DNA of 59,247 nt from an uncultured Candidatus Saccharibacteria bacterium (GTDB lineage: Bacteria; Patescibacteriota; Minisyncoccia; JACQLN01). Each line of letters opens with the position of its first letter. Within the stretch, counting starts at the first letter, position 1. The notes under the pieces are model-generated. The model ran no database searches. It was not told where the DNA came from and worked only from the letters and a program-made list of their open reading frames with translations. Below, in pieces: positions 3,272-54,234 of the stretch. Where the stretch lies: the NCBI GenBank assembly GCA_964365305.1, contig CAYIPG010000002.1, positions 1 to 59,247 of the forward strand, given 5' to 3'. The position numbers and the translations under genes were made by a program.

Positions 3272-3370
3272 CACGATGCCAATATACGAATTTATACGAA
3301 TGATACTAATACAAATGCGAATGTTTTATTTGTATAATTCGCATGTCATTCGTTGATTAGCATCGCGTCT
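3272..3370 (+). repeat. TACGAAT-family junction cassette, copy 1 (pilM stop to pilN start)
   Basis: CACGATGCCAATATACGAAT...TTTGTATAATTCGCATGTCATTCGTTGATTAGCATCGC. Nested inverted repeats. Confidence 0.9.
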
Positions 3371-4533: not shown

Positions 4534-4836
4534 ATGGCTGTTGTAATAACACAGGAAATAAAGAAAAAAAGAACGATGCTGGCCTTGGCTGGAATTTTAC
4601 TGGTGGTTACGGCGGTTATTCTTTATGTTGGCCTTAAAAAAACACCGCCGATCGAGGAAACCGTGTCTGCGCCGGCTGGGGTAGCCGGGGCGCCGGAAGA
4701 AATTGCTCCAGCGCCGGAAGTGGGTGATCTTAATATAGGTATTTTGGAAGACACGCGCTTTAAAAAACTTCAGGAGTCGCCGGGCTTGCCGGTGGCGACC
4801 AGCACTACAGGGAAATCAAATCCGTTCTCGGAATAA
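4534..4836 (+). CDS. small membrane protein of the pilus assembly row (function unknown)
   Basis: One TM segment, then a Pro/Ala-rich linker. Tightly packed between the pilO-like gene and pilB. Confidence 0.55.
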   Translation: MAVVITQEIKKKRTMLALAGILLVVTAVILYVGLKKTPPIEETVSAPAGVAGAPEEIAPAPEVGDLNIGILEDTRFKKLQESPGLPVATSTTGKSNPFSE

Positions 4837-4936
4837 CACGATGCCAATATACTAATTTATGCGAATGATACTAATAAAAGATTCAAATGTCTTATTTGTA
4901 TAATTCGCATGTCATTCGTTGATTAGCATCGCATAC
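4837..4936 (+). repeat. TACGAAT-family junction cassette, copy 2
   Basis: Same termini and 3' half as copy 1. Spans stop 4836 to ATG 4937. Confidence 0.9.
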
Positions 4937-6661
4937 ATGGATCTGCTAACCTATCTAATCCAAAACGGTCTTATAAAAGAAAATCAAATCCGGGATATTC
5001 CACCGGAAATTTTAAGCAACCCCAATGATTTAGAGAATGAACTTGTCAAACGCAACTTGATAAGCCCAGACGATATTCTACAAGCCAAAAGCGTTTTTTC
5101 TGGAGTGCCTTATTTGGATTTAACTTCAAAGGCAATAGAAAATAGCGTGCTTCAGGAAATACCCGAGAAGGCCGCTTTGCATTATCGCTTTATACCTATA
5201 GAAAAAAATGGCAATGAATTGACGGTGGGCATGGTTAACCCGGAGGATGTGGAAGCGCGCGAGGCCTTAAAATTTATCTCCTTAAAGGGCAATTTCACTT
5301 CCAAAATTTATCTTATATCCGAAGCCGACTTTAAAAATGTGTCGGCCCAATATCGCACCTTAGGCAAAGAAGTTACTACGGCTTTGGAACAACTGGAAGA
5401 AGAATTGGCCGGCGAAGATAAATCGGGGATCTCGGTCGGAGCGGAAAAAGTGGAGCAGATTGCCGTTGAGGCGCCTATCACCAAAGTCGTTTCAGTTATT
5501 TTAAGGCACGCAGTGGAAGGGCGGGCCTCGGATATTCATATTGAGCCCTTAGAAAACGAGACCCGTGTGAGATTTCGTTTGGACGGGGTGTTGTATTCTT
5601 CCATTATTCTGCCTAGTTCCATTCATAATTCTATAATTGCCCGGATAAAGGTTTTAGCTAGTTTAAAAATAGATGAGACCAGAATGCCTCAGGATGGCCG
5701 GTTTCACACCAAAATAAACAACAAAAAAATTGATTTTCGGGTGTCGTCTTTGCCTACGGCTTACGGCGAGAAAATAGTCATGCGGGTTTTAGACCCGACG
5801 GTGGGCGTGGGCACTTTTGGCGATCTTGGTTTTATCGGTCGAAATCTGGAGGTGTATGAACGGAGCATCAAACAACCCTACGGCATTGTTTTGATAACCG
5901 GTCCCACGGGTTCGGGCAAGTCCACCACTTTATACACCACGCTTAACTCGCTTAACAAAGACGGCGTTAATATCATCACTTTGGAGGATCCGGTGGAATA
6001 TTACATCGCCGGGGTTAATCAATCACAGATAAAACCGGAAATTGGCTATACTTTCGCTTCGGGTTTAAGAAGTATTTTAAGGCAAGATCCCAACATTATT
6101 ATGGTGGGTGAAATCAGAGATAAAGAAACGGCCGGTTTAGCCATGCACGCCGCTTTAACCGGACATTTGGTTTTATCCACCTTGCACACCAACAACGCCT
6201 TGGGAATAATTCCGCGATTGGCGGATATGGGTGTGGATGCTTTTTTAATTCCTTCAACCCTGATAGCCGGTCTGGCCCAACGATTGATTAAAAAACTTTG
6301 CCAAAACTGCAAAACCCCCACCGAAACAGCCCCCGCTCTGGCTAAGATTATAGAAGAGTCGCTGGCTAGCGTTCCCCCCGCCGAATTGGAAAAATACAAA
6401 ATCAAAAAGCCCTTCCAACTTTTTAAATCCCCGGGCTGTGATCAATGCGGCCACAAAGGCACCAAAGGTCGGCTGGCTATTTATGAGATATTTGAAATGA
6501 CTCCTGATTTGGAAAAAATAATTTTGGAATCAATGTCCGAAGTTAAAATTGCGGCCGAGGTTAAAAAACAGGGGATGATAACTATGAAACAGGATGGTAT
6601 AATGAAAGCGTTGCTCGGCTTGTTGCCCATAGAGGAGGTCTTGAGGGTGGTGGAGGAGTAG
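4937..6661 (+). CDS. pilB: type IV pilus assembly ATPase PilB (GspE family)
   Basis: Walker A GPTGSGKST, GspE boxes, C-terminal CQNC...CDQC tetracysteine. ATG 4937 lies directly after the cassette. Confidence 0.92.
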   Translation: MDLLTYLIQNGLIKENQIRDIPPEILSNPNDLENELVKRNLISPDDILQAKSVFSGVPYLDLTSKAIENSVLQEIPEKAALHYRFIPIEKNGNELTVGMVNPEDVEAREALKFISLKGNFTSKIYLISEADFKNVSAQYRTLGKEVTTALEQLEEELAGEDKSGISVGAEKVEQIAVEAPITKVVSVILRHAVEGRASDIHIEPLENETRVRFRLDGVLYSSIILPSSIHNSIIARIKVLASLKIDETRMPQDGRFHTKINNKKIDFRVSSLPTAYGEKIVMRVLDPTVGVGTFGDLGFIGRNLEVYERSIKQPYGIVLITGPTGSGKSTTLYTTLNSLNKDGVNIITLEDPVEYYIAGVNQSQIKPEIGYTFASGLRSILRQDPNIIMVGEIRDKETAGLAMHAALTGHLVLSTLHTNNALGIIPRLADMGVDAFLIPSTLIAGLAQRLIKKLCQNCKTPTETAPALAKIIEESLASVPPAELEKYKIKKPFQLFKSPGCDQCGHKGTKGRLAIYEIFEMTPDLEKIILESMSEVKIAAEVKKQGMITMKQDGIMKALLGLLPIEEVLRVVEE

Positions 6662-8226: not shown

Positions 8227-8327
8227 AACACGATGCCAATATACGAATTTGTACGAATGATACTAATTAAAATTCGAATAACCTATTCGTATAATTCGCA
8301 TGCATTTGTAGATTAGCATCGCATATT
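8227..8327 (+). repeat. TACGAAT-family junction cassette, copy 3
   Basis: Spans pilT stop to pilC ATG. CGTATAAT variant. Confidence 0.9.
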
Positions 8328-9536: not shown

Positions 9537-9645
9537 ACGATGCCAATATACAAATTTATGCGAATGACACGAATAATTATACGAATAAAAATGCATTTGT
9601 GTATCTATTAGTATAATTCGCATGTCATTCGTAGATTAGCATCGC
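9537..9645 (+). repeat. TACGAAT-family junction cassette, copy 4
   Basis: Starts at the pilC stop. Followed by 33 nt of A/T-rich sequence before the pilin ATG. Confidence 0.88.
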
Positions 9646-17182: not shown

Positions 17183-17211
17183 TTTAACTATGGTAAAAAA
17201 CTTGCTATCAT
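17183..17211 (+). promoter_or_regulatory. candidate promoter of the gatC leader (TTTAAC-17-TATCAT with TGC extension)
   Basis: Sequence match only. Confidence 0.4.
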
Positions 17212-17217
17212 AAAGTC

Positions 17218-17372
17218 ATATGACCACAGCACCAAAGCCCAGCCGTATCAGTGCTAGTAAAATGGTTGTCTGCGAGATGCCTGCGGCTCACTTCCTACAC
17301 TACGGATTACAGAAGCAGGATTGGTGCTGGGTCTATATTTTATAGTCGTTCACTATCGTTCACGAATAAAAT
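17218..17372 (+). promoter_or_regulatory. conserved structured 5' leader upstream of gatC (paralog of the proS leader)
   Basis: Shares GCCTGCGGCT, GATTTGGTGC(T/G)GGGT(C/T)TATATTTT(A/G)TAGTCG and CTCACGAA(T/C)AAAATATG with 49842-50008. A long-range helix is conserved. Confidence 0.6.
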
Positions 17373-17675
17373 ATGATTTCCAAAGAAGAAGTTAAACATA
17401 TCGCCGAGTTGGCCAGAATTAAGCTGACCGAGAGTCAGATAGAAAAATATCAAAAAGAGCTCTCGGGGATTTTGGATTTTGTCAGCGCGCTAGCGAATGT
17501 TGATACCACAGCTGTCGCGCCGATTAGGCAGATAACTGGACTGGAAAGCGTTTTTCGAAAAGACGAAGATCTTGGTCTGTTGGATCAAAACCAAGGTCAG
17601 ATTTTAATAAAACAAGCGCCGGAGCATCGGGACGGGTTTGTTGTCGTGCCCGAGGTTATTAAAAGAGACAAGTGA
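17373..17675 (+). CDS. gatC: Asp/Glu-tRNA amidotransferase subunit C
   Basis: 100 aa with a GatC-like sequence (EEVKHIAELARIKLTE...). Directly upstream of gatA. Confidence 0.9.
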   Translation: MISKEEVKHIAELARIKLTESQIEKYQKELSGILDFVSALANVDTTAVAPIRQITGLESVFRKDEDLGLLDQNQGQILIKQAPEHRDGFVVVPEVIKRDK

Positions 17676-19168: not shown

Positions 19169-19233
19169 TACGAATAAAAATTCGAATGTCTTATTTGTAT
19201 AATTCGTATGTATTCGTAGATTAGCATCACATT
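19136..19233 (+). repeat. TACGAAT-family junction cassette, copy 5 (overlaps the gatA 3' end)
   Basis: ACACGATGCCAATATACAAAT...GTATAATTCGTATGTATTCGTAGATTAGCATCAC. The gatA stop 19166-19168 lies inside it. Confidence 0.9.
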
Positions 19234-37514: not shown

Positions 37515-38120
37515 ATGTATAAATTCACTTGTAAAAAATGCAGGCGTTTGGGTTATAAAGTTTGTGATTCAATTAAGTGCGCTATGGTCAAAAAACCCTA
37601 TCCGCCCGGCCAGCACGGCAAAAACAGTTCCAGTCGGCGTTCGGAATTTGGAACACAACTAGCCGAAAAACAAAAATTAAAAGCCATTTATGGTTTGCGA
37701 GAACGGCAATTCCGGCGCTATTTTGATTTTGCTTCCGAGAAAAAAGGCGTAACTGCGCAAATAATGATGGAACTTTTAGAACGGCGGTTAGATAATGTTG
37801 TTTTTCGTTTGGGTCTAGCCCCAACTCGGCACGCTGCTAGGCAGCTGGTGGCCCATGGGCACTTTGCCGTTAACAGCCGTAGAACTTATTCGCCGTCTTA
37901 TTCGGTTAAACCCGGCGACAATATAGCCATAAAGGACTCCAGCCAGCCCAAAAAGATTTTTGAAAATATTAGAACGATCTTAAAAAAATTTGAACCGCCC
38001 AGTTGGCTGGAACTGGATAAAGAAAAATTGGTCAGCAAAATGGCGCGGTTGCCCGACAAAGATTTTTTGAAGGAATTGCCGGTAGAGCTTTCCAAAGTGT
38101 TGGAATACTATTCAAGATAA
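37515..38120 (+). CDS. rpsD: 30S ribosomal protein S4
   Basis: N-terminal Cys cluster CKKCRRLG...C...C, S4 domain RLDNVVFRLGLA. Confidence 0.93.
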   Translation: MYKFTCKKCRRLGYKVCDSIKCAMVKKPYPPGQHGKNSSSRRSEFGTQLAEKQKLKAIYGLRERQFRRYFDFASEKKGVTAQIMMELLERRLDNVVFRLGLAPTRHAARQLVAHGHFAVNSRRTYSPSYSVKPGDNIAIKDSSQPKKIFENIRTILKKFEPPSWLELDKEKLVSKMARLPDKDFLKELPVELSKVLEYYSR

Positions 38121-39336: not shown

Positions 39337-39381
39337 TGCGATGCCAATATACGAATTCATGCGAATGATGCGAATAGAAAT
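39337..39381 (+). repeat. TACGAAT-family junction cassette, 5' half only
   Basis: TGCGATGCCAATATACGAATTCATGCGAATGATGCGAAT between the rplQ stop and the rplM ATG. Confidence 0.8.
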
Positions 39382-49806: not shown

Positions 49807-49835
49807 TTGTCAATGGGAGTTAGTGGTGCTAAAAT
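49807..49835 (+). promoter_or_regulatory. candidate sigma-70 promoter TTGTCA-17-TAAAAT (TGC extension) for the proS leader
   Basis: Sequence match. Confidence 0.5.
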
Positions 49836-49841
49836 CAATCA

Positions 49842-50008
49842 ATTATTTGGTATGCGACCCCAGCATCAAAATCCGACCATGCTTTGACAACTAATAAAAT
49901 TTTTTCAGCGATACGCCTGCGGCTTCTATTCTGCACTAAATTATATCATCGGCAGATTTGGTGCGGGGTTTATATTTTGTAGTCGCTCGCTTCGCTCACG
50001 AACAAAAT
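49842..50008 (+). promoter_or_regulatory. conserved structured 5' leader upstream of proS (paralog of the gatC leader)
   Basis: See 17218-17372. Helix GACCCC-A-GCAUCAAA / UUUGGUGC-GGGGUU. Confidence 0.6.
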
Positions 50009-51256
50009 ATGAAATACTCTCAATCATTTATTAACACTCTGCGGGATGATCCTAAGGACGAGGTTTCTATTAACGCCAAGTTGTTATTGCGGGGCGGGTT
50101 TGTGGATAAACTCATGGCTGGTTCCTACTCGTTTTTACCGTTGGGCTGGCGGGTTTATCAAAAAATAGAAAATATTATCAGAACTGAAATGAACGCCATC
50201 GGCTCGGAGGAAATTTTAATGCCGCTGCTGCATCCCAAAGAAATCTGGAACGAAACCGGCCGTTGGAATGATCCAGGCGTAAAAGAAATAATGTATCAGT
50301 TTAAAACCGGCGATGGCAAAGAATACGGCCTGTCTTTTACCCACGAGGAGATATTTTTGGATATTGTCCGCAAAAAGTCCTTAAGCTATAAAAATTTGCC
50401 GGTAAAATTGTATCATTTTTCCACCAAGTTTAGAAATGAATTTCGGGCCAAGTCGGGTTTGCTTAGGGGCCGGGAATTTTTAATGAAAGATTTATACAGC
50501 ATTCACACCAACCAGAAAGATCTAGACAAATTTTACTGGGAAGTTAAAGAGGCCTATATGAGAATCTATAAGAAGATTGGCCTGGGCGATACCAAAGTTG
50601 TGGAGGCCTCGGGCGGGGTTTTTACCTCGGGGCGCACGCATGAGTTTCAAATTCCCAGTTCCGCCGGCGAAGATATTATTTATGCCTGCGCCAAGTGCGA
50701 TTGGGCCCAGAACAAAGAGATTTATACGGATAAAATCGGGGGCAAATGTCCGCAATGCGGAGGCCATGTTGAAGAATCAAGTTCCATAGAAGTCGGCAAT
50801 ATTTTTAGGTTCGGCACGGTTTATTCCGAAAAAATGAAAGTTAATTTTAAGGATAAAGAGGGCCAAATTAAACCGGCGTTTTTGGGCAGTTATGGTATTG
50901 GCGTGAGCCGTTTGGTGGGCGCGCTTGCCGAAAAATTTAACGATGAACAAGGCCTCATTTGGCCGAAAACAGCAGCGCCGTTTTTGGTTCATTTGGTTTC
51001 TATTGGCAATGTCGCGGCTGAAGCCGAAAAAATTTACCAGAAAATGTTAAGCGGCGGTTTAGAGGTTTTGTGGGACGATCGCGATGAATCGGCCGGAGTT
51101 AAATTGGCCGATGCCGATCTTATCGGCATACCTTATCGGATGGTGATGAGCGAAAAAACATTGGCCCAAAATAGCGTGGAGATAAAAAAAAGAGATAGTC
51201 AAAAAACGGAATTAATAAAATCGGATCAGGTTGTTTCATATGTATCTGCTAAATAA
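50009..51256 (+). CDS. proS: proline--tRNA ligase, short bacterial-like form without the INS editing domain
   Basis: Class II motifs (FRNEFRAKSGLLRGREF, GSYGIGVSRL). CAKC...CPQC knuckle where INS normally sits. ATG 50009 preferred. Confidence 0.88.
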   Translation: MKYSQSFINTLRDDPKDEVSINAKLLLRGGFVDKLMAGSYSFLPLGWRVYQKIENIIRTEMNAIGSEEILMPLLHPKEIWNETGRWNDPGVKEIMYQFKTGDGKEYGLSFTHEEIFLDIVRKKSLSYKNLPVKLYHFSTKFRNEFRAKSGLLRGREFLMKDLYSIHTNQKDLDKFYWEVKEAYMRIYKKIGLGDTKVVEASGGVFTSGRTHEFQIPSSAGEDIIYACAKCDWAQNKEIYTDKIGGKCPQCGGHVEESSSIEVGNIFRFGTVYSEKMKVNFKDKEGQIKPAFLGSYGIGVSRLVGALAEKFNDEQGLIWPKTAAPFLVHLVSIGNVAAEAEKIYQKMLSGGLEVLWDDRDESAGVKLADADLIGIPYRMVMSEKTLAQNSVEIKKRDSQKTELIKSDQVVSYVSAK

Positions 51257-52305: not shown

Positions 52306-53100
52306 ATGGTGAGATGGCAACAGGCGCTGGCGATTTTTATTTTAACGCTGGTCTTGTTCTTTTCCGACAAGGCCGGTTTTTTTGATTTCGGCGTTAATAT
52401 AATCAATAAATTCACAGTGTCTCCCATCACTAAATTTACCGCCGGCGCGTTGGAAGAATCTTTTTTTATTTTTAAAAACTTCTTGGGCATCCGCCAGATA
52501 ATCAGAGAAAATCTTTTTTTAAGGAGTCAACGCGATTTTTTTAGGGGGGAGTATTTTAAATTGTTGGGAATAGAACAAGAAAATGATTTTTTGCGTCAGG
52601 CCTTAAATTCAGAAAAAGAAAGCAGCTCTAAAATTATTCTGGCGCGTATTGTGTCGTTTGATCCGTTTTATGCCAGCGAGGTGTTTTTAATAGACAAGGG
52701 TTCGGCCGATGGTGTCAACGCCAATGACGCGGTTATTCTGCCTGGCGGGATAGTTGTGGGGCATATTAAGGGTATAAGTTCAAAAGAAAGCCGTGTTTTA
52801 TTGATAACTTCGGCTCAAAGCCGGGTGACAGTGTCTTCGAAAAATAGCCAAATCAGCGGGGTTGTTTCTGGATCGGCCAGCGGCGCTTTAAATTTGGATC
52901 TTGTCTTAAAAAACACCCAATTAAGCCCAGGGGAGATTTTAATTACTTCCGGGTTAGATGGAATTTTTCCGGCGGATTTATTGGTGGGCGAAATAACAAA
53001 AATTACCGATAACAGCGCCGCGTCTTTCCGCCAGGCCTCGGTCCGGCCATTTTTCACACTCCGAGATCTCAAGCAAGTTTTTGTGGTTGTCTCAAAATAA
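52306..53100 (+). CDS. mreC: rod shape-determining protein MreC
   Basis: TM, coiled coil, then GLDGIFPADLLVGEI. Directly after mreB. Confidence 0.85.
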   Translation: MVRWQQALAIFILTLVLFFSDKAGFFDFGVNIINKFTVSPITKFTAGALEESFFIFKNFLGIRQIIRENLFLRSQRDFFRGEYFKLLGIEQENDFLRQALNSEKESSSKIILARIVSFDPFYASEVFLIDKGSADGVNANDAVILPGGIVVGHIKGISSKESRVLLITSAQSRVTVSSKNSQISGVVSGSASGALNLDLVLKNTQLSPGEILITSGLDGIFPADLLVGEITKITDNSAASFRQASVRPFFTLRDLKQVFVVVSK

Positions 53101-53102
53101 TC

Positions 53103-53125
53103 ATATCGGTTTGCGAAACCGATAT
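53103..53125. repeat. 23-bp palindrome ATATCGGTTT-GCG-AAACCGATAT
   Basis: 13 nt upstream of ATG 53138. Confidence 0.9.
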
Positions 53126-53137
53126 ATAATACGAATT

Positions 53138-53857
53138 ATGTATAGTAAAAAGTCATACCCAGGTAATTTGTATCATGTCCTTAATCGTGGTGTTGATAAG
53201 AGGATTATCTTTATCGATAAAGTTGATTATTTAAGATTTATTCGTATTTTGTACGATTTTAATAATATTGAACCGGTGAGTAATTTTAGTTATTTTTTTG
53301 CTAAACAAAAACAAGAAAATTCTATTGGTTTCGCAAACAGATATGGAGTTGGATATAATCAGGGTTCTAGAAAGGTGCTGGTTGATGTTTTGGCTTTTGT
53401 TCTTATGCCCAATCATTATCATTTATTATTAAAACCGCGAATTGAAAATGGTGTAACTCTTTTTATGAAGAAAATTAATATTGGCTATGCGAATTATTTT
53501 AATAAAAAATATGAACGGAGTGGTGCTTTATTCCAAGGGCGTTACAAATCTGTGATTGTGACTAAGGAAGCTCATTTTATACATTTACCTTATTATATTC
53601 ATGCTAATCCTTTGGACTTGGTTATTCCTGAATGGAGAGATGGAAAAGTAAGAAACCCAAAAAAAGCAATGAACTTTTTGAAAAGTTATCGTTGGAGTAG
53701 TTTTAGTGATTATATCGGTCGTGTGAATTTTCCACTAACAACTCAAAGGGATTTTCTTTTGGAATTTGTAGGTGGAACTACAAGGTACAAAATAAATTTT
53801 TCAGAGTGGCTTCGAGCGATGGATATGGATAAACTAAACAGCTTTACTTTGGAATAA
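53138..53857 (+). CDS. IS200/RAYT-like HUH-Y1 transposase-family protein, paralog 2
   Basis: LMPNHYHLLLKP (HUH) and YYIHANP (Tyr motif). ATG 53138; the track start 53081 reads through the flanking palindrome. Confidence 0.8.
   Translation: MYSKKSYPGNLYHVLNRGVDKRIIFIDKVDYLRFIRILYDFNNIEPVSNFSYFFAKQKQENSIGFANRYGVGYNQGSRKVLVDVLAFVLMPNHYHLLLKPRIENGVTLFMKKINIGYANYFNKKYERSGALFQGRYKSVIVTKEAHFIHLPYYIHANPLDLVIPEWRDGKVRNPKKAMNFLKSYRWSSFSDYIGRVNFPLTTQRDFLLEFVGGTTRYKINFSEWLRAMDMDKLNSFTLE
53323..53343. repeat. degenerate intragenic copy TATTGGTTT-CGC-AAACAGATA
   Basis: Encodes SIGFANRY. Differs at 2 positions from the 3' flank copy. Confidence 0.8.
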
Positions 53858-53863
53858 TTTAAT

Positions 53864-53884
53864 TATCGGTTTCGCAAACCGATA
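53864..53884. repeat. 21-bp palindrome TATCGGTTT-CGC-AAACCGATA
   Basis: 6 nt after stop 53857. Its last base is the A of the next ATG. Confidence 0.9.
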
Positions 53885-54234
53885 TGGGGTTATTTAACTT
53901 TATGGACTACCAAATTAATAAAAAGTTATTGGGTTCGAAATATCGGCGGGAGATGTGGCAAAACTCCAAAAACATAATTAAAAAATTGGAGAAAGTTTTA
54001 CCGATTTCAGAGGCCTACTTAATGGGTGGTTTTACCACCAAGAAGCCCCGCCCCGCCGATGTAGATTTTATAATTTTGCTGAAAATAAAAGACAAAAACC
54101 ATAAAGCCAAATGGTCGGTGGATTTGGTCATCGCTCCCGACAACAAATATGGCCAGTTTGTGCTGGAAGATGGTGATAAATGGGTCAAAGAAAAATATGG
54201 GTTGGATAAATCAACCATGATAAGAATTAGATAA
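53884..54234 (+). CDS. minimal nucleotidyltransferase-fold protein (Pol-beta superfamily-like)
   Basis: MGGFTTKKPRPADVDFIILL resembles the GS-x(n)-DxD NTase motif. Confidence 0.5.
   Translation: MGLFNFMDYQINKKLLGSKYRREMWQNSKNIIKKLEKVLPISEAYLMGGFTTKKPRPADVDFIILLKIKDKNHKAKWSVDLVIAPDNKYGQFVLEDGDKWVKEKYGLDKSTMIRIR

Follow-up and report, generated by a model that had tools for sequence, protein, structure and literature searches.

We analyzed a 59,247-nt stretch of DNA from an uncultured Candidatus Saccharibacteria bacterium (contig CAYIPG010000002.1, positions 1 to 59,247; hereafter the window) and examined two structured leaders of ∼150 nt that precede its gatC and proS genes. Both leaders are probably copies of a small mobile element, non-coding and non-autonomous, that is found in groundwater Parcubacteria and whose transcript would form a leader that sequesters the start codon. 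Comparison with relatives showed that the element landed exactly on the gatC and proS start codons in this lineage, leaving the genes intact, and that the terminal ATG(A) of the element replaced the native one, which was stranded beside the promoter. An earlier reading of the window made without database searches (the sequence-only reading) had suggested that the two leaders sense tRNA or amino acids, a role that they do not appear to have.

The gatC leader (17218-17372) and the proS leader (49842-50008) were aligned over ∼165 nt, up to the ATG codons at 17373 and 50009, with a mean column identity of 79%. This bears out the statement of the sequence-only reading that they are alignable over more than 100 nt, and the shared strings that it listed are as described, with GCCTGCGGCT found at 17279 and 49915. 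The 28-nt block TTGGTGCNGGGTYTATATTTTRTAGTCG is found in both leaders and nowhere else in the window, compared to 0 occurrences expected from shuffles. Each leader is preceded, again as that reading had stated, by an extended -10 promoter; both are native, with TTAACT-16-TGcTATCAT (17184-17211, + strand) at gatC being kept in relatives that lack the element and TTGTCA-17-TGcTAAAAT (49807-49835, +) at proS being common to relatives. The gatC copy of the inserted element (17224-17376, +) spans 153 nt and comprises a core, a 3' hairpin, and its own ATGA, whereas the proS copy (49855-50011, +) spans 157 nt; their scores with our covariance model (R1) were 60 bits (E = 4e-14) and 88.7 bits, respectively. 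The gatC element is bracketed by a direct repeat of ATATGA (17218-17223 and 17371-17376), of which the left unit (+) is the original start codon (ATG 17220-17222), now located at the predicted 5' end of the transcript. The proS element is bracketed by TATG(CG)A (49851-49857, +), a remnant of the original start (ATG 49852-49854), and TATGA (50008-50012). The long-range helix with a bulged A (P1) that had been proposed for both leaders was recovered at gatC in the minimum free energy structure (z = -3.1) and at proS in the centroid structure. At gatC, its 5' strand GACC-A-CAGCACCAA (17222-17235, +) pairs with UUGGUGCUG-GGUC (17321-17333, +), and at proS, GACCCC-A-GCAUCAAA (49856-49870, +) pairs with UUUGGUGC-GGGGUU (49957-49970, +). 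Within the core, the motif GCCUGCGGCU is located at 17279-17288 (+) and 49915-49924 (+). The 3' hairpin pairs UAUAUUUUAU with AUAAAAUAUG at gatC (17334-17375, +) and UAUAUUUUGU with ACAAAAUAUG at proS (49971-50011, +), with the AUG (17373-17375 and 50009-50011) inside the stem in both cases. The start codon is thereby paired in both leaders, UAUAUUUU(A/G)U with A(U/C)AAAAUAUG, and the two hairpins differ by one A-U to G-C compensation.

The stranded start codons open upstream reading frames of 41 codons (gatC) and 11 codons (proS) that are non-conserved; a leader peptide was rejected because these two frames are unrelated and differ in their end points. A candidate third copy in the window (37935-38020) had an E value of 0.11 and lies within a coding region, and we therefore regard it as a chance match. 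The public gene call for proS (P0001, 49958-51256) encodes 431 residues versus 415 residues when read from the ATG at 50009. Its start is a TTG in the 3' strand of P1 (49958), which adds 16 residues; this N-terminal extension is false and was created by the element.

The window belongs to a Parcubacteria contig from Hainich groundwater. To compare filled with empty sites, GatA homologues with 91%, 90%, and 75% identity were traced to three contigs (L013, L015, and L017). In all three, the gatC promoter is kept, the -10 box (TATCAT or TATTAT) lies 7-8 nt before the ATG, and the element is missing; given that spacing, gatC is essentially leaderless in these relatives. In the window, this promoter and CATATGA are separated from ATATGA and the gene by 153 additional bases. 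ProS homologues were found at 88% (L006 and L007) and 73-74% identity (L001, L003, and L004), and the promoter TGCTAAnAT...ATCAATTA is kept. The proS leaders of L007, L001, and L003 are ∼35 nt long and lack the element, that of L004 is longer and unrelated, and the contig of L006 is cut 97 nt upstream of the ATG and contains no element. For a co-occurring related strain in the same metagenomes, position 49846 is joined to 50018 via 30 unrelated bases, such that 49847-50017 is skipped. The R1 model detected no copy in any of these syntenic gatC and proS loci. Because the relatives keep the promoters and lack the ∼155 nt, each window copy is an insertion of 153-157 nt at a start codon. The sequence-only reading had offered a duplicated promoter region as the alternative to a shared leader; this alternative fails because the promoters are native and only the part downstream of them is shared.

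Further copies were sought in genomes and metagenomes. A scan of GTDB genomes provided one, located between rplW and rplB in a Parcubacteria metagenome-assembled genome (L020). Metagenomes were scanned with a two-block pattern that required GCCTGCGGCT and TTGGTGCNGGG; the matches listed, which include chance ones, contained many AT-rich contigs of the candidate phyla radiation (CPR) type with the same architecture. At least 27 distinct copies in Parcubacteria contigs scored 50-103 bits with the R1 model, which supplies the additional homologous leaders that the sequence-only reading had proposed to look for. On the basis of an alignment of 21 core sequences (A4), the core is ∼110 nt long and is closed by a 14-15-bp helix, P1, that consists of the conserved outer strands CCCCGCACCAA/UUGGUGCGGGG, a bulged A, and 3-4 covarying inner pairs. 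Its 5' strand reads CCCC(G/A)CACCAA, followed by the bulged A and the 3-4 variable pairs; next come a variable hairpin, usually with CCG/CGG or CGCG/CGCG closure, the sequence YRCG(G/A)AAnC, the GCCUGCGGCU motif, a variable linker of ∼33 nt, and finally UUGGUGCGGGG-3'. The GCCUGCGGCU motif was invariant in 21 of 21 aligned copies, a count for which the scan pattern itself had required the motif, and the nusG copy in L049 has GCCUUCGGCU in its place. P1 was paired in 88% of cells, which decreased to 31-47% once the 3' partner was slid. The inner pairs covary (UA9/GC5/AU4; UA9/CG8; CG14/UA3), and the covariation score was reached by 0 of 500 shuffles; the same was true for the 3' hairpin described below. 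Helices backed by covariation, a generic trait of cis-regulatory RNAs, are thus found in P1 and in the 3' hairpin. The family is in none of the RNA or repeat catalogues that we searched, and no earlier description of the element was present in Rfam 15 or in the literature, including when the literal stem sequences were used as queries. The earlier proposal of a shared structured element outside known classes consequently holds for the homology, the covariation, and the absence from Rfam; the sensing function attached to it is not supported.

In one class of copies (class A), the core is followed directly by a 3' hairpin of ∼40 nt that ends in ATG. The ATG lies 38-41 nt past the core in eight copies (gatC, two orthologous copies each for proS and rplK, nusG, a U32 peptidase gene, and NUDIX-grpE) and is located farther away in three others, i.e., in the rpmJ copy, with its additional hairpin, and in those at rplB and at a gene for a small membrane protein, both of which contain nested insertions. 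Since the bases right after P1 pair with the last bases of the element (UC...GA, or UGC-U-CAU...AUG-GCA), the start codon is part of the element. Sub-family 1 ends in ...AAAAUAUGA (...AAAUAUGA at rpmJ) and sub-family 2 ends in ...AUGGCA. The left flank repeats the terminal 4-7 nt in 7 of 10 copies (e.g., ATGGCC vs ATGGCA at nusG), the left flank of the other three is without a match, and across all copies only the preceding A is common. An empty site for nusG was identified in L095. Among the stems of the eight class A hairpins, three pairs were changed on both sides, with 0 of 500 shuffles reaching the score.

Class B copies consist of the core, a short spacer, and a second copy of the end of the target gene, with the first copy abutting the 5' end of the core. 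The duplicated segment derives from the 5' end of the gene for lepA (45 nt, from the ATG), uvrA (∼45 nt), tsaD (76 nt), tRNA-Leu (15 nt), and tRNA-Cys (29 nt), and from the 3' end for tRNA-His (17 nt) and a comM-like gene (34 nt), both of which are on the opposite strand; the intact gene is always on the 3' side of the core. The empty lepA site is available in a relative with 86% identity (L153). The left lepA copy is native, as it overlaps the stop codon of the upstream gene, and the insert comprises the core, 31 nt, and 44 nt of the lepA 5' end with differing codons 2-5. Other copies are intergenic: one between two terminators (L034), one upstream of the hrcA promoter and CIRCE (L137), one at an S21-like gene (L070), and those in L047, L116, and L037. 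By raw count, translation-related genes or tRNAs account for at least 12 of the ∼22 contexts, where the names L11, L36, S21, and a 35-residue UvrA fragment were assigned from N-terminal motifs only. An all-against-all BLAST comparison of the open reading frames (ORFs) located within 4 kb of 25 copies revealed no recurrent neighbor gene, except for one HSP70-type family at three loci.

The orthologous copies allowed us to assess constraint on the element. For the two rplK orthologs (L049 and L095), the core is 90% and the hairpin 87% identical, compared to 48% at the third codon positions of rplK, and the hairpins exhibit three compensatory double changes (CAUAAUUUU/AAAAUUAUG vs CAUUUUUGU/ACAAAAAUG). 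The remnants of the old rplK start have decayed to GTGGCTA and GGGGCTA, and this shared decay argues for one old insertion rather than two recent ones. The proS element of the window is 97% identical to its ortholog in L045, compared to 77% at third positions and 68% in the upstream spacer, and its 3' hairpin is identical at 37 of 37 positions. These results are consistent with selection acting on the hairpin pairing and the core sequence in the orthologous copies.

The sequence-only reading was correct that gatC and proS lack a Shine-Dalgarno (SD) sequence, a feature that is not distinctive here because an SD-like motif lies within 25 nt of the ATG in only ∼11 of the 62 long ORFs of the window. 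In many ORFs, a -10-like hexamer precedes the ATG by 7-8 nt. Judged by its sequence, the organism seems to rely largely on leaderless or SD-independent initiation. In such a setting, the insertions would convert a leaderless gatC mRNA and a short-leader proS mRNA into mRNAs with structured leaders of 150-160 nt and a base-paired AUG. The AUG is located in an AU-rich stem of 9-10 pairs with predicted stabilities of -8.5 kcal/mol (gatC) and -11.0 kcal/mol (proS) at 37 °C, and of -14.9 and -19.7 kcal/mol, respectively, at 12 °C. As P1 directly adjoins the 3' hairpin, the folded element brings its two ends together. Occlusion of the start codon by the hairpin would affect translation initiation in cis, and it might either be constitutive or be relieved by a factor that binds the conserved core; a cis effect on initiation is the mode that we favor because the hairpin pairing and the core appear to have been kept by selection. 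Overall, the element is most like a start-codon-occluding leader that is delivered by a small mobile element. Translational operators that occlude the start codon or SD are known, as are RNA thermometers such as ROSE and fourU. The element resembles these systems in having an AU-rich stem over the initiation codon, which is its most likely mode of action, and groundwater temperature is predicted to stabilize its stem further (-15 to -20 kcal/mol at 12 °C); the known operators and thermometers, however, are fixed, gene-specific leaders and not mobile cassettes. An outward promoter within the element (TTGGTG as -35 with TAGTCG/TAGCTA or TATAGT as -10) was also considered and rejected as unsupported, since either the spacing or key -10 positions fail and promoter scans list none.

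No transposase, integrase, or reverse transcriptase was found to travel with the element; with no linked enzyme, mobilization must depend on one supplied in trans. No autonomous insertion sequence (IS) with the same ends was present in the ∼1 Mb of loci that were fetched, and no long-range pairs of stem arms bracketing an autonomous element were detected. The sharp 5' end, the 4-7-nt terminal match, and the gene-end duplications of 15-76 nt suggest that movement relies on structure and on homology at the termini, and they do not fit DDE-type cutting with a fixed target duplication. A model in which RNA templates a duplication that spans the transcription start and the insertion point is not supported, as it suits gatC and perhaps tRNA-Leu but fails for proS, lepA, and uvrA.

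Miniature inverted-repeat transposable elements (MITEs), Correia elements (CREE), RUP, and ERIC are small non-autonomous bacterial repeats that are co-transcribed with genes. The element shares with them a size of 100-160 nt (153-157 nt in the window), the non-coding and multicopy character (at least 27 distinct copies), the insertion polymorphism and empty sites among close relatives, ends that pair as a long stem, and a location in 5' untranslated regions (UTRs) where expression can be altered. It differs from them in that the inverted repeat closes only the core, with the insert running ∼40 nt (hairpin) or 14-77 nt (spacer) beyond it, and in lacking a target duplication of fixed length: the flanking repeats are 4-7 nt in one class, 15-76 nt of gene end in the other, and absent from several copies. 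In addition, it contains the asymmetric internal GCCUGCGGCU motif, supplies a start codon, and has no parent IS in the fetched loci.

Islands that integrate at tRNA 3' ends, and SXT at the 5' end of prfC, carry a replacement gene end. As in these islands, a terminal gene segment is repeated, the intact gene lies on one defined side, and the gene is restored (lepA, uvrA, tsaD, tRNA-Leu/-Cys/-His, and comM); tRNA genes and conserved genes (e.g., lepA, comM, and tsaD) serve as targets, and the second copy has diverged codons, as if it came from another lineage. By analogy, class B looks like the attL/attR arrangement of gene-end islands, as would be produced by a circular intermediate that recombines at the gene end. 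Unlike these islands, the inserts are only 150-250 nt long without an ORF, no integrase or recurrent neighbor gene accompanies them, the repeats are 4-76 nt, and both 5' and 3' gene ends are used; of the four half-sites, only one is conserved. Rickettsia palindromic elements are translated in frame as part of a protein. They too are small palindromic mobile elements found in essential genes and compatible with gene function, but the leader element stays outside the ORF and renews the gene end.

In IS200/IS605 elements, the target is a tetranucleotide that flanks the left end, the right end finishes with a tetranucleotide that serves as a cleavage site, the subterminal hairpins are ∼20-25 nt, the guide is 5' of the hairpin foot, and the cleavage sites lie outside the hairpins (PMC6006769). 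The element resembles IS200/IS605, PATE, and REP/REPIN (PMC6006769; PMC3597680) in being hairpin-based and strand-asymmetric, in lacking the signature of terminal inverted repeats with a target-site duplication, and in having a left sequence like its own last nucleotides; moreover, the window contains a Y1_Tnp gene. Within each sub-family, the right end does not vary (..ATATGA; ..ATGGCA) and the left flank matches it in 7 of 10 copies, but the motif at the left flank is variable, the structure on the left side is a multi-helix core of 110 nt rather than a 20-25-nt hairpin, and the terminal ATGA or ATGGCA lies inside the 3' stem. The Y1_Tnp gene (IS200-like, Pfam; 53138-53857) is flanked by the palindromes ATATCGGTTTGCGAAACCGATAT and ATCGGTTTCGCAAACCGAT in a unit spanning 53098-53890; the ATCGGTTTCGCAAACCGAT palindromes are unrelated to the element, and the unit is a REPtron/IS200-like insertion unrelated to the leader element. 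This locus also has a partial third copy of the palindrome inside the gene, and the Y1_Tnp and DUF6932 genes are missing at this position in L001 and L004. The element fails tested defining features of T-boxes, MITEs, IS200/IS605-PATE/REP elements, integrase-borne islands, and introns. We place it among the small non-autonomous mobile elements as a new variant that was not previously described in Rfam 15 or the literature searched.

The explanation put forward by the sequence-only reading, a divergent T-box-like leader or riboswitch that senses uncharged tRNA or an amino acid and controls tRNA-charging genes, is now highly improbable. It would account for the two window carriers both being tRNA-charging genes, for a UUGGU able to pair with an ACCA end, and for the resemblance of the P1 5' strand, CCCCGC-A-CCA, to a tRNA 3' end; the sequestered AUG would suit it as well, since translational T-boxes sequester the start region. 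T-box leaders (RF00230) are likewise long structured leaders ahead of genes of the aminoacyl-tRNA synthetase type that contain a strand with UGGN. An Infernal scan against Rfam for T-box and synthetase leaders, the check that had been recommended, nevertheless returned nothing relevant: Rfam 15 cmscan gave no match for the whole window at gathering scores, nothing relevant for the gatC leader even at E ≤ 10, and only genuine tRNAs for five other element loci at E ≤ 1, with no T-box, intron, ribozyme, or ribosomal-protein leader model matching in these scans. The element has no Stem I, specifier, or T-box sequence, and no specifier-like or terminator/antiterminator alternative pairing was found in it. 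T-boxes are conserved at orthologous genes, whereas the element is missing upstream of proS (five relatives) and gatC (three relatives) in every close relative examined, and it shows no gene specificity, with most of its diverse targets being non-aminoacylation genes or the inside of tRNA genes. The UUGGUGC suggested as the contact for an NCCA end pairs in cis with (G)CACCAA in every member (UUGGUG with CACCAA in 21 of 21 aligned members), so that no UGGN is free.

A more serious competitor, although still an unlikely one, is that the element is nothing but selfish DNA, of the MITE, REP, or PATE type, in which the hairpins serve only a transposase, possibly HUH/Y1, as single-stranded DNA or a cruciform and any RNA effects are incidental and tolerated. 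Insertion polymorphism, the conserved 11-bp inverted repeat at the core ends, the shorter hairpin elements that have the same stem without the core motif, the other palindromic elements nested in copies, the Y1_Tnp gene of the window, and the resemblance of the ATGA before the insert and the ATGA ending it to the left target and right cleavage tetranucleotides of IS200/IS605 (PMC6006769) all agree with it. The rplK copies do not: they are 87-90% identical versus 48% at synonymous positions with three compensatory changes in the AUG stem, and selection for mobility is not expected to keep a vertically inherited copy in this way. Also unfavorable to it are the absence of a fixed target duplication, the inconstant left-flank motif, the ATCGGTTTCGCAAACCGAT palindromes around the Y1 gene that are unrelated to the element, and the inserted unit reaching 40 nt past the inverted repeat. 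Improbable by comparison is a core that acts as a promoterless trans-acting small RNA, riding on strongly transcribed translation and tRNA genes and freed by processing (e.g., by RNase P at the downstream tRNA or by RNase III at P1). Many copies do lie just downstream of promoters of ribosomal-protein, translation-factor, and tRNA genes, the L034 copy sits between two terminators like a free-standing gene, and the core is conserved more than the linkers; yet the copies in L137, L047, and L037 are upstream of the next promoter or antisense to their neighbors, no processing signal was identified, and a divergence of 10-40% among the copies is atypical of a functional RNA with multiple copies. 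We consider it very doubtful that the element is intron-like or bypassed, i.e., cut out of the RNA or passed over by ribosomes between the matching AUG(A) copies, which would make the insertion phenotypically silent. Ribosome bypassing has precedents in mobile 'byp' elements and T4 gene 60, to which the short matching repeats flanking the element and a compact two-helix fold that joins the two ends could be compared. Rfam scans gave no match to group I or group II introns, however, and genes are restored by a second copy of the start or gene end rather than by excision: the second copies at lepA, uvrA, and tsaD keep the start codon and coding sense, and translation therefore starts after the element. 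The left remnants decay (GTG and GGG at rplK), and several copies have no matching left repeat.

A number of points weigh against the interpretation of the leaders as copies of a mobile element with a start-codon-sequestering transcript. The proS copy alone folds weakly (z = -1.07) and is without a stable P2. Its high identity to the orthologous copy continues past the element, for 16 nt on the upstream side and 45 nt on the downstream side, and recent transfer by recombination would fit equally well. Conservation over 21 nt is partly by construction, because the search pattern fixes those 21 nt. The G-U versus A-C counts in P1 do not decide the strand, and the co-evolution of transposon ends can likewise yield covarying inverted repeats that have no role as RNA. 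No mobilizing enzyme was identified among the examined loci. Lastly, we infer both that the native promoters still fire through the element, which would give leaders of 153 nt for gatC and ∼167 nt for proS, and that the hairpin limits translation. With these points considered, we still hold the mobile, start-codon-sequestering leader to be the probable explanation. A broader proposal, that these copies represent a new class of CPR mobile element, a 'start-codon cassette', is offered tentatively and is more doubtful; it would integrate at gene or transcript ends via structure and terminal homology (mediated by single-stranded DNA or RNA) without a DDE transposase or linked integrase, donate a folded 5' UTR and an AUG or renew a gene end, and be kept as a translational control module by hosts that mostly do without SD sequences and have leaderless mRNAs.

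Additional observations concern the family and its surroundings. Hairpin elements of 65-75 nt with a stem CCCCCACACCAA/UUGGUGUGGGGG as in the family occur in L070 (12679-12751) and L060 (88-153) and lack both the inner hairpin and GCCUGCGGCU; such elements could have been derived by deletion or could form a sister family, and the common stem suggests that it is what the mobilizing enzyme recognizes. Nested palindromic elements are found inside family members, always in loops (L020, 2546-2650; L048, 3162-3250), with further nested or flanking palindromes in L061 (∼955-976), in L141 (∼62-82), and in the upstream flanks of L080 and L048. The rplB copy harbors a nested hairpin of 105 nt, and GCCTGCCTGACGGCAGTCAGGC is shared by two unrelated copies; a CCCGCAC...GTGCGGG hairpin and hairpins of the GTCATCCCGAGCG type also occur, and the genomes that carry the family seem rich in hairpin insertions. 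In all members, the P1 5' strand CCCCGC-A-CCA is like a tRNA acceptor strand with the discriminator A and CCA, and the P1 3' strand is complement-like, similar to a primer-binding site; this is a resemblance only. No tRNA with a P1-like end was present in the fetched loci, the tRNA covariance model does not match the element, and a tRNA-derived or tRNA-mimicking element (P1 CCCCGC-A-CCA with GCUCAU after P1) is not favored. The ∼33-nt linker was rejected as a target guide, as no complementarity to the flanks was apparent by eye and orthologous copies differ, including by an indel. A phage origin was likewise discarded: when viral contigs were scanned with the pattern, the 6 matches were due to chance, and the covariance model matched 0 of them. 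The two-block pattern also matched a highly conserved unrelated sequence, cgccaagtcgtagcacaaaaagcagcgg...GCCTGCGGCTGCCGCC..., in many gut-type metagenome contigs (L028, L031, L032, L050, L056, and ∼20 more). In L099, a NUDIX domain is fused to GrpE behind the copy (∼4820-5740 in plus-strand coordinates) with dnaK adjoining, and the L137 copy is upstream of hrcA with its CIRCE operator, which places two copies at heat-shock genes. Finally, the 18-nt motif TTCGTWGATTAGCATCRC occurs six times in the window, compared to 0.01 expected (3349-3366, 4915-4932, 8305-8322, 9628-9645, and 19213-19230 on the + strand; 39338-39355 on the - strand). At least four of the plus-strand copies end 5-8 nt before the ATG of a long ORF, and the motif looks like a promoter or -10 box (TAGCAT) common to leaderless genes.

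For annotation, these findings mean that leaders of ∼150 nt of this kind should not be taken for synthetase-specific riboswitches and that the elements create false upstream starts, as in the proS call P0001. If our interpretation is true, Parcubacteria possess a widespread and uncatalogued family of structured elements that has rewritten the initiation regions of core genes (ribosomal proteins, translation factors, gatC, proS, and tRNAs) without breaking the genes. The finding would bear on initiation and its control in SD-poor, leaderless CPR bacteria and on the tolerance of tiny genomes for mobile DNA inside essential genes, and it would possibly involve a transposition or integration chemistry that recognizes a folded strand and a few terminal bases.

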